This document shows, in pieces, positions 30,181 to 49,194 of a DNA stretch of 52,979 nucleotides. A model generated the notes under the pieces. That model searched no databases, was not told the origin of the DNA, and saw only the letters and a list, made by a program, of their open reading frames with translations. The translations under genes were made by a program, and so were the position numbers. Every line of letters starts with the position of its first letter. The stretch's first letter is position 1. The stretch is from sequence record PV660454; one strand, written 5' to 3'. Source of the DNA: Escherichia phage LF82-11.

Positions 30181-30894
30181 ATGATTGACGAGAACGATAA
30201 AGACACAATGACGTTTGAAGAAATGGAGCACGGCTTGTATTCAACTCGCGCACTGGTTGCCGGGTGCCACTACCAGCCAGTGAAGCCGGAAACGTACTAT
30301 CGCGTTTCAGGGCATCGTTACGTTGGCAGCAAAACGCCTGACGTTGTGCGTGACTTGTGGGCAACCGATCGCGAATTGATTTCGTGGATGGAAGAGCGTT
30401 ACGGAAAGTATGATATCGACGCAGCGGCAAGCGCGAATAATGCCGTGTGCGAAAAGTTCTACGACGAGCAACGTAACTGCCTGAAAATCTGGTGGGGAAA
30501 GAATAAGCACATCTGGCTTAACCCTCCGTACTCACATCCTGATCCATTCGTGAAGAAGGCCATTGAGCAGATGGAGCATGACAACCAGATTGATATGCTT
30601 CTTCCTGGCGACAACTCAACGGCATGGTTTGCAGAGGCGCGCAAAAACGCTGCTGAGATCATCTGGATTGAGGCTGAGATCACAGAGATTGACCAGCAGG
30701 AATATTGCCGAACCGGGCGACTCGCTTTTATTTCCGGCCTAACCGGAAAGCCAGTTGACGGCAACAACAAAGGGAGTGTGATTTTCATCATGCGCAAACT
30801 GAAAGAGGGTGAGACGCAACAAACACACTATGTGAGCGTTTCTGAGATCTGCCCAGGCGTAAGCCGCAAGAAACCACGTAAACGGAGCGTTTAA
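30181..30894 (+). CDS. dam: DNA N6-adenine methyltransferase (phage Dam family)
   Basis: 237 aa with NPPY motif (LNPPYS), as in T1-type Dam. Confidence 0.7.
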   Translation: MIDENDKDTMTFEEMEHGLYSTRALVAGCHYQPVKPETYYRVSGHRYVGSKTPDVVRDLWATDRELISWMEERYGKYDIDAAASANNAVCEKFYDEQRNCLKIWWGKNKHIWLNPPYSHPDPFVKKAIEQMEHDNQIDMLLPGDNSTAWFAEARKNAAEIIWIEAEITEIDQQEYCRTGRLAFISGLTGKPVDGNNKGSVIFIMRKLKEGETQQTHYVSVSEICPGVSRKKPRKRSV

Positions 30895-36870: not shown

Positions 36871-36913
36871 TGATAGAGCAACCAATGATAGTGCGTTTTG
36901 GCAAAAAGTGCTA
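36871..36913 (-). promoter_or_regulatory. box-promoter module (minus)
   Basis: box read on minus strand, hairpin, TATCAT-like -10 at about 23 bp. Confidence 0.4.
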
Positions 36914-36917
36914 TTGG

Positions 36918-37334
36918 TTATAAATATTTTGCTTCAAATGTTGTGCCGTCTGCGATCGAAAATCCAACCTCCTCGCGGTAAAGGTTCCACGGTGAGCCGT
37001 CCTCGTCAAAGATAAGCCCGGCAACCCCACCAAGCGCCCTGCCTGAATCCACCTGGTAGCGCTTGCCAACCTTAAAGGATTTCTTCATTGGGTTCTTGTG
37101 ATCCAGCGTCATGCACTTCAGGGTTTTAGTTTTCATCTCAACGAATGTTGCAGCAACGACGCCATCCGATGAAACGAAAATATCACCGCTTACGCCAACC
37201 GAAAGCACGATCTTAGCCTTGCCCTTGCCGATTGAAATGTTGCCTTCATCGTCAACTTTCGCCTTATACATGTGGTTAGCGTTGAAGGTTTTAGTTAATG
37301 ACATGGTGCATTTGATCTTGATTGACTTTGACAT
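36918..37334 (-). CDS. tandem-duplicated small-domain protein (paralogue family)
   Basis: two internal copies of the K-x-K-C ... F-K-V-G-K-R-Y module; start moved to ATG 37334 with GAGGAA RBS. Confidence 0.35.
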   Translation of the reverse strand: MSKSIKIKCTMSLTKTFNANHMYKAKVDDEGNISIGKGKAKIVLSVGVSGDIFVSSDGVVAATFVEMKTKTLKCMTLDHKNPMKKSFKVGKRYQVDSGRALGGVAGLIFDEDGSPWNLYREEVGFSIADGTTFEAKYL

Positions 37335-37363
37335 TTTTAGTTCCTCGTTGTTGGTGTGAATGA

Positions 37364-37406
37364 ATAATAACAAAACCCGCCGAAGCGGGTTTAACAAAAA
37401 GTGCTA
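37364..37406 (-). promoter_or_regulatory. box-promoter module (minus)
   Basis: TAGCACTTTTTGTTA on minus strand, 22 bp, TATTAT; box starts at stop of upstream gene. Confidence 0.5.
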
Positions 37407-38096
37407 TTTGTAACGGTTGTACTGGAAGACGGCGCGAGCGAATCCGCGCGGAGTTAGGGAGCGGAGTTGCTTAGTCTTCGCAGACTTTCCGCCGAGGAAC
37501 TTCCAGCCCCAAAAGAAATGCAAGCCTTCCTCTTTTGGTAATGGTGCCTTCTCTGGCTCGCGGAAACCGTTGCCATGCCAGATGCAAGTTTTTTTCGTGT
37601 AGCCGTCTCGCAGTGGCATTTTGGGGTGCCAGGAGCCTTCACGCGCATCGACGTATTGCCCGAAGTCACGAGGATGGAAATAGAATTTAGGCTTGCCCAG
37701 GTTTTCCGGCTTTGACATTGCCCCTACCGGGTTTTCAATCATCCACGGGATCTGGTAGCGTTCGCCAATCTCAATGACAACCTTTGCACACTCAAGCGCA
37801 TATTTCATTTCGGCGTCGTCTCTCTCGTGCTGCGCGCCAGATTGGGCAAACAGAGTGCAATCCGGGAAGCCAAAAACGATATCAGGCTTGGGCAACCCCA
37901 GGATCTCAGCCTTTGTGATGAAATCCTTATCAATCCACGTATTCACATATCGGATATTTGGGTGATTCATCTTCACGGCGTACTCGCCATGATTGCCGGA
38001 GTCAGCGTTGAAGCATATCACCTGACAACCAACCTCAGCCCAAGGCAATCCCATAATGCCGGAGCCGTCAAACAGCGACCATACAACACGCTTCAT
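37404..38096 (-). CDS. compact C5-cytosine methyltransferase-fold protein
   Basis: FDGSG (motif I-like), GFPDC (IV-like), ENP (VI-like), RSLTPRGFARA (IX/X-like); only 230 aa so little room for a target-recognition domain. Confidence 0.5.
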   Translation of the reverse strand: MKRVVWSLFDGSGIMGLPWAEVGCQVICFNADSGNHGEYAVKMNHPNIRYVNTWIDKDFITKAEILGLPKPDIVFGFPDCTLFAQSGAQHERDDAEMKYALECAKVVIEIGERYQIPWMIENPVGAMSKPENLGKPKFYFHPRDFGQYVDAREGSWHPKMPLRDGYTKKTCIWHGNGFREPEKAPLPKEEGLHFFWGWKFLGGKSAKTKQLRSLTPRGFARAVFQYNRYK

Positions 38097-38314
38097 TCTG
38101 CCACCTCTTCAAATTTAGCCACGCCCAGGATTACCCATCCTTTATGGTGCATAGTAACCGCTTGCCACTCGAATGAGCCGTTGCGGCGCTTCTCATCGCC
38201 AGTGATCACAGCATCACCGCCAACCTTCACGGCATCGTAGATTTTACCTTTCGTGAAGTGTGGCTTTTGCTTCTTATCGGTTGGCGAAACAGCGCCAGTA
38301 CATTTCAGTTTCAT
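38093..38314 (-). CDS. small protein of the MKxKC paralogue family
   Basis: MKLKCT...FTKGKIYDA; ATGA-coupled to methyltransferase-like gene. Confidence 0.35.
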   Translation of the reverse strand: MKLKCTGAVSPTDKKQKPHFTKGKIYDAVKVGGDAVITGDEKRRNGSFEWQAVTMHHKGWVILGVAKFEEVAE

Positions 38315-39047: not shown

Positions 39048-39090
39048 ATTATTGCAGATCACGCCGATTTAGTTTTAACAAAAAGTGCTA
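39048..39090 (-). promoter_or_regulatory. box-promoter module (minus)
   Basis: TAGCACTTTTTGTTA on minus strand starting at stop of 39088..39435, then AATAAT-like -10. Confidence 0.45.
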
Positions 39091-39435
39091 TTTGATGCCG
39101 TCAAAGGTTGTGTATTTCAGGTTCACACTGACCTTGCCATCATCGAAATGGAAAGCGGGAGCCTCAAAGCGGATGATGTTATTCATCGTTCCGGCCTCTA
39201 CGTAGCGTCGTGCGCCATTTCTCATGGGGATAACGCTGACTCTCTTTGCCGCATCGAATGGATTTGAAACGCCAAAGTATCGACATACAGCGCCGCGCAA
39301 CGCCTCATCTTCATGCTTATGCATATCACGGATGAGGCGATTTTTAGCGTCCATCATCACATCATAGCTTGCACAGCTAGAGCCGATGTTGCTATATTCG
39401 CGCATTCCGCCAACCTTGAATTGATTGTTGTTCAT
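39088..39435 (-). CDS. hypothetical protein
   Basis: 115 aa, ATGA-coupled to upstream gene. Confidence 0.3.
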   Translation of the reverse strand: MNNNQFKVGGMREYSNIGSSCASYDVMMDAKNRLIRDMHKHEDEALRGAVCRYFGVSNPFDAAKRVSVIPMRNGARRYVEAGTMNNIIRFEAPAFHFDDGKVSVNLKYTTFDGIK

Positions 39436-40209: not shown

Positions 40210-40252
40210 ATAATAGCAAAAGCCAGATCGGGAGTTTTAGCAAAAAGTGCTA
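40210..40252 (-). promoter_or_regulatory. box-promoter module (minus)
   Basis: TAGCACTTTTTGCTA on minus strand, 22 bp, TATTAT. Confidence 0.5.
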
Positions 40253-40314
40253 TTTTCCCGATCCGGCGCGCGGAACATCTGCCCCATGGTTTGGGGTGTT
40301 AACCAGTCAGAGCG

Positions 40315-41629: not shown

Positions 41630-41672
41630 ACTATAGCCGAAACATCCTGAGTGGTTTTAGCAAAAAGTGCTA
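41630..41672 (-). promoter_or_regulatory. box-promoter module (minus), leftward early promoter
   Basis: TAGCACTTTTTGCTA on minus strand, 22 bp, TATAGT. Confidence 0.5.
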
Positions 41673-41690
41673 TTGATTCGATTTATCCAA

Positions 41691-47954: not shown

Positions 47955-48586
47955 TGAACTTTCAAATGTACACTATGATCAAGCATCACTTACTTACTCA
48001 TCCAGATCAGCCAGTCTACATCTTCGACTATGACGGCACGCTTTCGGATGGCTCTCACCGACTGGACAAGTTGCCAACAAAAGATTTGCACCTCACCGAA
48101 AGCTGGGAAGAGTTCAATCGCCTTGCTTCATTCGATGAGCCGATCGAAACAACCATTCAGGTGATGAATTCACTTTATAAGGCTGGCGCTTTCGTTATCG
48201 TGTTAACCGGGCGCGCCGATAGCGTTGTTGAAGAGTCAACACAATGGCTGCATGATGCTGGGGCGAAATATACAGTGATGGTGATGCGTGGGCGTGACGA
48301 CAATCGCAAGGACACGATCATCAAGGAGGAATTCTTGCGCTACATCGGACTTGAGCGAATTACAGCGGCGTGGGATGATAGCCCAAAAGTGATCGAGCAT
48401 TTCCGATCGCTGGGCATCACAACCTACCAGGTTTGTGATTATGGCGATAAGACTCACGCGCATCTACAGTCACACGGCGTGAAAGATGCTGGCGGAGAGT
48501 GTGAGCATATTTGGGAGCGTCACAGTATTGGTGACGATTATTATGAATGCTGTGTTTCATGCGGCAGATCAAGAGGCATTAAGTAA
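47954..48586 (+). CDS. HAD-superfamily phosphatase with C-terminal Cys cluster
   Basis: IFDYDGTL (DxDGT) HAD motif I; ATGA-coupled; C-terminal C-x-n-C cluster. Confidence 0.5.
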   Translation: MNFQMYTMIKHHLLTHPDQPVYIFDYDGTLSDGSHRLDKLPTKDLHLTESWEEFNRLASFDEPIETTIQVMNSLYKAGAFVIVLTGRADSVVEESTQWLHDAGAKYTVMVMRGRDDNRKDTIIKEEFLRYIGLERITAAWDDSPKVIEHFRSLGITTYQVCDYGDKTHAHLQSHGVKDAGGECEHIWERHSIGDDYYECCVSCGRSRGIK

Positions 48587-49194
48587 TGGCAACTATCATC
48601 ATTCTGAATGCGCCGCCGCGCGCCGGGAAAGACACGATCGCGAAAATCATCGACGAGCAATACGGCTTGCCAGTTGTGAGCTTCAAAACTCCGATGTTCA
48701 ACATTGCTCGCGGCATCTTGGGCGAAGCGGATTTTAAAGAGTTCATGGCGGTTTACGAAACAGACCGCAAGGACACACAGCCGTTAAGTATTCTGCATGG
48801 CAGCACTTGCCGCGAGTTTATGATCTGGATTAGCGAATCCGTGATTAAGCCTCATTTCGGCAAGAAGCATTTCGGCTGGCTTATGGCTGATTTGCTCAGC
48901 GAAATGGAGGATGATGTTGATCTCACAATTTGCAGCGATGGCGGGTTCCCGGATGAGGTAGAGGCGTTGATTGACTTCGGGCACCGTGTCAAGCTGGTTC
49001 GTATGCACCGTGAAGGCTTCGACTTCTCGAAAGATAGCCGTGACTACATCTACCTTTCCGAAGAGTACAAGAGCAAGCCTGGTGTTGTTGAGTTCGATCT
49101 GACATTGCAGGACGGTTGCCCTAATCTGGCTGCTGAGACTATCGCGTCATTGTTCATTGCCCATCATAAACCAGATAACGAGATCCCTTGGTAA
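48586..49194 (+). CDS. P-loop (deoxy)nucleotide kinase-like protein
   Basis: N-terminal LNAPPRAGKDT Walker A resembling phage dNMP kinase P-loops. Confidence 0.45.
   Translation: MATIIILNAPPRAGKDTIAKIIDEQYGLPVVSFKTPMFNIARGILGEADFKEFMAVYETDRKDTQPLSILHGSTCREFMIWISESVIKPHFGKKHFGWLMADLLSEMEDDVDLTICSDGGFPDEVEALIDFGHRVKLVRMHREGFDFSKDSRDYIYLSEEYKSKPGVVEFDLTLQDGCPNLAAETIASLFIAHHKPDNEIPW

Follow-up and report, generated by a model that had tools for sequence, protein, structure and literature searches.

A compact Dcm-like gene of Escherichia phage LF82-11 and its probable role as a DNA cytosine-C5 methyltransferase

What does a protein of 230 amino acids, with the motifs of a cytosine methyltransferase and an unusual residue before its catalytic cysteine, do for the phage that encodes it? 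The question is raised by an open reading frame (ORF) at positions 37404..38096 of Escherichia phage LF82-11 (sequence record PV660454), the 52,979 nucleotides of which were analysed as a whole and are called the window below. A preliminary description, made from the sequence alone, had read the ORF as a compact protein with the fold of a C5-cytosine methyltransferase (C5-MTase), an altered catalytic motif and little room for a target-recognition domain (TRD), and had left its function between a relaxed-specificity anti-restriction methylase, a DNA hypermodification enzyme and a non-catalytic DNA binder. The ORF is real, lies on the minus strand in the ORF list, and its product (XUQ13564.1) already bears the label 'DNA methyltransferase' in GenBank. 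We consider it likely that the gene encodes an active DNA cytosine-C5 methyltransferase, dependent on S-adenosylmethionine (AdoMet), of the compact phage 'Dcm-like' family (PHROG 757). In this analysis the assignment is based on fold, motif conservation, family membership and synteny. The preliminary description had missed that the gene belongs to this family, which is large, annotated and partly characterised.

The profile of PHROG 757, 'DNA methyltransferase', matched residues 1-228 of the protein with an E-value of 3.6e-77. A word-indexed search recovered 1,971 homologous clusters, the best 120 of which are all ~215-245 aa, and an exhaustive profile search recovered 1,806 representatives at 50% identity, nearly all of 200-260 aa; the median family length is 227 aa (n = 228). 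By tblastn, the gene was present in 1,499 of 50,697 phage records (~3%), the carriers including T1-like phages, Webervirus, Jersey-like phages, Kagunavirus, Dhillonvirus, rV5-like phages, Krischvirus (RB49/JSE) and 9NA. The family also occurs in phages of non-enterobacterial hosts, e.g. Vibrio and Arthrobacter, and its members generally bear the name DNA or cytosine methyltransferase, 'Dcm' or 'Dcm-like C5 cytosine methyltransferase'. Every residue of the family signature (F-P-x-C-T, G87, E-N-P, F140-x-P142, D164-x-Y-x-K-x-T-x-x-W173 and R212-S-x-T-P-x-G-F-x-x-A) is carried by the window protein at its compact size of 230 aa. By these comparisons, the window gene is a typical representative of a family with a very wide distribution, and its small size and the P-D-C sequence at its catalytic site are traits of the family, or of a clade within it, of an already annotated and partly characterised MTase.

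The proposed fold was borne out by profile matches, two fold searches and family statistics. Homology to C5-MTases was detected strongly via PHROG 757 only, being weak and N-terminal to canonical models. The PADLOC type II MTase (MTase_II) and DruM cytosine methylase profiles gave E-values of 6e-6 to 2e-5, and Pfam PF00145 gave 0.0017 (18.3 bits) with profile positions 4-100 of 324 matched; only three of 62 family members reached E<0.01 with the same Pfam model. Against PDB sequences, a profile of close homologues (A1) lost the match to HaeIII, and a diverse profile (A2) matched HaeIII and DNMT2 with E-values of 0.05-0.13. The AlphaFold2 model (predicted local distance difference test 81.4, predicted template modelling score 0.82) was searched with Foldseek, and the best 36 matches were all C5-MTases, led by DNMT3B and DNMT3A (E ~2e-7, ~220 aligned columns). 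In the fold search, 182-195 of the 230 residues superpose on the C5-MTase catalytic domain; generic Rossmann-fold short-chain dehydrogenases/reductases reached a score of ~10, yet with only ~150 residues aligned. Judging from the predicted model, the C5-MTase fold assignment is sound, and the protein is a divergent branch of the superfamily.

The motifs that had been listed before are indeed present, namely FDGSG (aa 9-13), FPDCT (aa 77-81), ENPVG (aa 121-125) and RSLTPRGFARA (aa 212-222; Table 1), but the claim that the catalytic PCQ is replaced by PDC came from an error of register. The phmmer alignment pairs FGFPDCTLFAQSG with IGGPPCQSWSEGG of M.HaeIII, keeping motifs I, IV and VI in register and placing C80 on the catalytic cysteine, and hhalign pairs C80 with C81, the catalytic cysteine of M.HhaI. 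Compared to canonical motif IV, it is the proline before C80 that has become aspartate and the glutamine after it that has become threonine (alignment to M.HaeIII). Among the close homologues, position 79 is D in 82, S in 23, P in 10 and Q in three; of the 110 distant representatives, 87 have P there, and E and V also occur in the family. Meanwhile, C80, E121 and K168 are each conserved in 227 of 228 full-length family members, and 117-118 of the 118 close homologues retain G11, S12 and G13. P-D-C is, from this distribution, apparently a clade-level variation at a tolerant position with the nucleophile kept. The valine of canonical motif VI is proline across the entire compact family. As a separate observation, G11 is replaced by bulky residues in many distant members (Y 28, R 15, F 10, E 9 and H 9 of 110), which keep the Cys, ENP and K/T/W signature invariant; cofactor binding in these clades may differ from that in canonical F-x-G-x-G enzymes.

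The second half of the protein is less conventional. Residues 164-173 probably take the place of motif VIII, as judged from their order and the predicted structure (a strand at 170-175 in the model), and Y166, K168, T170 and W173 are essentially invariant; hhalign gave no significant alignment of this region (Y166-T-K168-K169-T170) to HhaI. The segment from W173 to R212 comprises 38 residues here, with a family median of 36 aa (range 10-76, 228 members). The preliminary description was thus right that the protein is much shorter than typical enzymes, 230 aa against the 324 positions of PF00145, and that little room is left for a TRD, a property that holds family-wide. The C-terminal motif, which runs into a terminal helix (216-227, DSSP on the predicted model), may be the equivalent of canonical motif X or of motifs IX and X together. 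There is no classical separate TRD and no distinct pair of motifs IX and X, a single C-terminal motif being left.

A relative of the window protein has been characterised by others, in phage K42, the genome of which is 95% identical to that of KarlJaspers (bioRxiv 10.1101/2023.08.16.553469). In that study every K42 escaper of retron Ec86 disrupted a 711-bp 'dcm' gene, and expression of K42 Dcm was toxic only with the retron present; the authors also mention 'toxicity of Dcm itself'. The enzyme was active when expressed alone: by mass spectrometry coupled to liquid chromatography (LC-MS), it led to high 5-methylcytosine (5mC) on the multicopy single-stranded DNA (msDNA) of Ec86, while a C82A/E128A/K175A/K176A mutant or the empty vector did not. 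Defence was lost when either C of the msDNA's CCTGG was mutated. In the host used, dcm+ MG1655, little 5mC was present on the msDNA before expression of the phage enzyme (10.1101/2023.08.16.553469). Later work treats Dcm as an established trigger of the retron (PMC12640716).

KarlJaspers bas06_0055 has 711 bp and 236 aa, with C82, E128, K175 and K176 as described for K42 Dcm. The window protein matches it over the full length with 43% identity (E 3e-61), and the four residues correspond to C80, E121, K168 and K169 of the window protein. Both genes lie in a helicase-proximal slot of a T1-like genome and belong to the same compact family; they differ in that K42/KarlJaspers has the canonical F-P-P-C-T where the window protein has F-P-D-C-T, and in that the latter is ~5 residues shorter between motifs IV and VI. 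By identity and gene order, the window protein is the syntenic counterpart of a partly characterised 5mC-making enzyme, and by analogy it would make 5mC in vivo and trigger the retron likewise.

If the window protein is such an enzyme, it would employ canonical C5-MTase chemistry. The target cytosine would be flipped out, Cys80 (motif IV) would attack C6 and Glu121 (motif VI) would protonate N3, with Lys168 and Lys169 standing in for the canonical arginines of motif VIII; AdoMet would serve as the methyl donor, with the FDGSG loop and the RS-x-TP helix at the C-terminus holding it in place. As the classical TRD would be shrunk to a loop of ~36 residues, DNA recognition would have to come from loops of the catalytic domain. 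Expressed from a leftward early/replication operon, beside a helicase, the enzyme would methylate replicating phage DNA and, incidentally, host DNA, most likely at CCWGG-type sites, and would protect against cytosine-sensitive restriction; retron Ec86/Eco1 could sense it as a side effect. In this scheme we infer that the P-D-C variant is active, which sequence it targets and that it works against restriction.

The site composition of the window genome bears on the last two. Many type II sites are strongly depleted: GGNCC was observed once against 36 expected, GGWCC 0 against 14, RCCGGY 0 against 39, GGCGCC 0 against 27, GCCGGC 0 against 18, AGGCCT once against 19, TCCGGA 0 against 16 and GGCC 88 times against 210, and CCGCGG, CCCGGG, CGGCCG, CAGCTG and CTGCAG are absent. 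CCWGG (126 observed, 127 expected) and GATC (349 and 373) are not avoided, and neither are GCGC, GAATTC and GATATC. That many enterobacterial type II sites are avoided to an extreme degree, with CCWGG and GATC spared, fits Dcm-like plus Dam protection and is weak evidence for it; the observed/expected statistics of CCWGG are compatible with CCWGG methylation and not decisive. Two further observations were made: CCSGG is over-represented in the window genome (101 observed, 61 expected), and the avoidance spectra of KarlJaspers and T1 overlap with that of the window genome but differ from it.

Several points weigh against an active enzyme with a CCWGG-type target. By alignment, the proline of the near-universal Pro-Cys dipeptide is aspartate in the window protein. 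The PF00145 match falls below the gathering cutoff of 22 bits, and a search of NCBIfam profiles gave no match. The hhalign comparison with an HhaI profile was not significant (E 0.08), the HhaI-like profile consisting of 20 sequences at least 71% identical to each other and too alike for a good profile; comparison of the diverse profile A2 with M.HhaI alone was not significant either, and gave a sensible alignment in the N-terminal half only. No solved MTase gave a significant sequence match to the C-terminal half, and phmmer gave no PDB match for the C-terminal 67 aa. The sparing of CCWGG carries little weight, as the genome does not avoid EcoRI and EcoRV sites either, and the observed/expected ratios of CCWGG (0.99 and 1.03 in genomes with the gene and 0.83 in T1, which is without it) show a small effect in three genomes. 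In the K42 study, CCWGG specificity was assumed by analogy and from the msDNA mutants, without mapping (10.1101/2023.08.16.553469), and in the BASEL study such methylase genes showed no simple relation to resistance to restriction (PMC8594841).

These points bear first on specificity. That the enzyme performs 5mC DNA MTase chemistry with a non-Dcm specificity, i.e. a shorter, degenerate or single-strand/hemi-site motif, e.g. CC or CCW, and acts as a broad anti-restriction methylase is in our opinion a doubtful possibility, albeit one with several observations in its favour. Only ~36 residues are available for recognition, the closest structural relatives, DNMT3A and DNMT3B, read just 2 bp, and the family is present in Vibrio and Arthrobacter phages, outside enterobacterial hosts. 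The toxicity that the K42 authors attribute to Dcm itself is also consistent with a relaxed target. So is the msDNA. The Ec86 msd sequence used here is matched at 100% identity by 48 genomes of E. coli, B strains among them (an example is given in Table 1). When the msDNA is folded by prediction, the fourth base of CCTGG (G22) is unpaired, in a G.A mismatch, with CAAGG on the strand that faces it; the site is therefore not a canonical CCWGG duplex. As dcm+ MG1655 left this site largely unmethylated and the phage enzyme methylated the msDNA, the substrate requirements of the latter are not simply those of host Dcm. Nevertheless, the loss of defence on mutation of either C of CCTGG fits a CCWGG-like requirement, CCWGG is not avoided in a genome that otherwise avoids sites strongly, and neither a measured methylation motif nor a methylome of any member of the compact family was found in the literature searched. 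Alternatively, the catalytic site might be dead or weakened by the broken Pro-Cys (P-D-C), leaving a DNA- or AdoMet-binding protein. The proline before the catalytic cysteine, here aspartate, is highly conserved in canonical enzymes, and the Pfam and NCBIfam thresholds were missed. We nevertheless regard a pseudo-enzyme, the non-catalytic DNA binder of the preliminary description, as very unlikely: position 79 varies freely while C80, E121, N122, K168, R212 and S213 are essentially invariant, which is the pattern of an active enzyme, the motif I glycines are intact in the clade of the window protein, and the counterpart with the same strictly conserved catalytic residues makes 5mC in vivo.

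Transfer of a group other than methyl, e.g. carboxymethyl from carboxy-S-adenosylmethionine (Cx-SAM) as the first step of hypermodification, or a substrate such as RNA or a free nucleotide, is highly improbable. DNMT2, a tRNA methylase, is among the weak profile matches, the distant members with a bulky residue for the first glycine of motif I may bind the cofactor differently, and a P-loop kinase annotated as a deoxynucleoside monophosphate (dNMP) kinase lies elsewhere in the genome. Against this, LC-MS found plain 5mC with the K42 counterpart, the scores of 8yf3 and DNMT2 do not exceed those of ordinary DNA C5-MTases, no genes of glycosyl-, amino-acyl- or TET-type partner enzymes were found near the MTase gene here or in five other lineages, and the AAA_17 match of the 'dNMP kinase' is below threshold, so the earlier idea of a hypermodification enzyme finds no support. 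Split C5-MTases exist, e.g. M.AquI, and the coupling to the 73-aa ORF upstream that the preliminary description had supposed is plausible, as the ATG of the MTase gene overlaps the upstream stop by 4 bp (ATGA). Even so, a split enzyme in which the 73-aa protein provides target recognition in trans is hardly conceivable: tblastn detected nothing homologous to the 73-aa protein next to the MTase gene in KarlJaspers, Jersey, MaxTheCat, JSE and KpV522, where the neighbours are helicase, primase or unrelated small ORFs, and K42 Dcm is active by itself. A TRD supplied in trans by the 73-aa ORF is largely refuted by its absence from these five lineages, for which reason the ORF appears to be a mere neighbour of the MTase gene and no functional partner. 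It was also said to belong to a paralogous family of small proteins, which did not hold: BLASTP among 51 small phage ORFs gave no match at E<=0.05, and the only pairwise match (E 0.017) joins two proteins of different PHROGs.

An active, compact DNA C5-MTase can be set beside better-known enzymes. E. coli Dcm is about twice the size of the phage protein and has a full TRD. The chemistry of Dcm and M.EcoRII would be shared by the phage enzyme, and the CCWGG target is presumed from the name 'Dcm-like'; since its matches lie below the PF00145 threshold and every NCBIfam threshold, the phage protein is apparently not an orthologue of host Dcm. Identity to the catalytic domains of DNMT3A and DNMT3B is 14-20% with a template modelling (TM) score of only 0.43-0.54; DNMT3 acts as an oligomer, possesses regulatory domains and recognises CpG, and the phage protein is still ~50 residues shorter. 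The classical type II enzymes of the class of M.HhaI, M.HaeIII and the prophage CP-933R MTase 3g7u have ~325-350 aa, a TRD, Q-x-R-x-R and separate motifs IX and X, whereas the phage protein has Y-T-K-K-T as motif VIII, a TRD of ~36 aa and a single C-terminal motif.

The features of the locus are collected in Table 1.

Table 1. Features of the compact MTase gene, its surroundings in the window and the retron sequence referred to in the text
Feature	Position	Strand	Remarks
Compact Dcm-like C5-cytosine DNA methyltransferase coding sequence, 230 aa (probable)	37404..38096	minus	ORF list, GenBank XUQ13564.1, PHROG 757, fold searches, KarlJaspers match
Motif I, F9-D10-G11-S12-G13, putative AdoMet-binding loop	38058..38072	minus	in register with F-x-G-x-G of M.HaeIII/M.HhaI
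Motif IV, F77-P78-D79-C80-T81, putative catalytic cysteine C80	37854..37868	minus	aligned to GPPCQ of M.HaeIII and FPCQ of M.HhaI
Motif VI, E121-N122-P123-V124-G125, ENV-type	37722..37736	minus	aligned to ENV of M.HaeIII/M.HhaI
Putative motif VIII-equivalent strand, D164-G-Y166-T-K168-K169-T170-C-I-W173	37578..37607	minus	in place of canonical Q-x-R-x-R
Mini variable region, aa 174-211	37464..37577	minus	between W173 and R212; sole space for target recognition
C-terminal motif, R212-S213-L-T215-P216-R-G218-F-A-R-A222-V	37428..37463	minus	near-invariant columns; into terminal helix
Intergenic box module with terminator-like hairpin	37348..37410	minus	direct-repeat families D1/D2, 4-5 copies; directly 3' of MTase stop
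Terminator-like hairpin AAACCCGCTTCGGCGGGTTT	37373-37392	minus	followed by T-rich tail
Box copies (n = 5)	36887-36915, 37380-37408, 39064-39092, 40226-40254, 41646-41674		through the leftward operon
138-aa protein, PHROG 2684, unknown function	36918-37334	minus	downstream of MTase
73-aa ORF, PHROG 4448, unknown function	38093..38314	minus	upstream of MTase; stop overlaps MTase start (ATGA)
Dam-type N6-adenine methyltransferase, second DNA methylase of the phage	30181..30894	plus	Pfam PF05869, E 4.9e-59; annotated DNA methyltransferase
ORF annotated 'deoxynucleoside monophosphate kinase'	48586-49194	plus	Pfam AAA_17 sub-threshold only
Retron Ec86 msd, example	NZ_CP020368.1 861064-861138

The gene order of the window phage matches that of the T1-like Drexlerviridae KarlJaspers and T1, the three having in common terminase, head and tail genes, recE/erf/ssb, primase, helicase, Dam, lysis genes and a leftward operon in which small ORFs come after a second helicase. 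A 9NA-like affinity, suggested by a 156-bp megablast match, was dropped, as synteny is that of T1-like Drexlerviridae. At the syntenic slot of T1 (NC_005833; 46621-47327 against 36918-38314 of the window) both the compact MTase gene and the 73-aa ORF are missing, while a homologue of the downstream 138-aa protein is kept with 59% identity. The MTase gene is thus accessory, and from these comparisons it looks like a moron-like insertion in T1-like genomes. The genomes of LF82-12 and LF82-40 (PV660455.1 and PV660462.1, 52,979 bp) are identical to the window, and the region is 100% identical across the four near-identical isolates LF82-10, -12, -19 and -40. The taxonomy of PV660455.1 is given as 'Caudoviricetes' only, although its genes run collinear with those of Drexlerviridae (T1, KarlJaspers).

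The Dam methylase named by the preliminary description is present. Of the 'box-promoter module' that it placed next to the gene, the repeated box is real, with five copies, one of them abutting the stop of the MTase gene, but a promoter role is only probable. On the plus strand the box reads ...TTT[TA][AG][AGC]CAAAAAGTGCTATT and on the transcribed minus strand AATAGCACTTTTTG...; four of the five copies extend to a 63-nt module, which is probably a phage promoter/regulatory or terminator-promoter unit. The 138-aa protein is conserved in T1, KarlJaspers and KpV522, and shows a hint of an internal duplication of a 'K-x-K-C-T' start. As for the ORF annotated as dNMP kinase, its AAA_17 match (E 0.0097) reaches 16.6 bits against a cutoff of 27, so that the annotation is putative, and KarlJaspers has a P-loop NTPase in a similar region, downstream of a polynucleotide kinase gene.

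With the family in ~3% of sequenced phages and the gene already annotated, the window gene itself matters little; the family, though, is of some interest. Many enterobacterial phages would have in it an anti-restriction or epigenetic function, and it demonstrates that ~230 residues suffice for the chemistry of C5-methylation when a classical recognition domain is missing. It is also a known trigger of retron Ec86/Eco1, and by analogy its carriers, presumably including the LF82 phage, may be sensitive to the retron. We would go further only tentatively, to propose that these ~230-aa proteins are the smallest natural DNA C5-MTases, devoid of a TRD, in which a conserved insertion at residues 146-165 and the ~36-aa variable loop, both in the catalytic domain, read the DNA, with a specificity that is shorter, more relaxed or hemi-site/mismatch-tolerant in comparison with that of Dcm. 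If this is true, it would explain why the phage enzyme, and not host Dcm, methylates the mismatched CCTGG/CAAGG of the Ec86 msDNA, and the family would be for cytosine what the non-specific adenine methylases of phages are for adenine, and would offer engineering a minimal scaffold.

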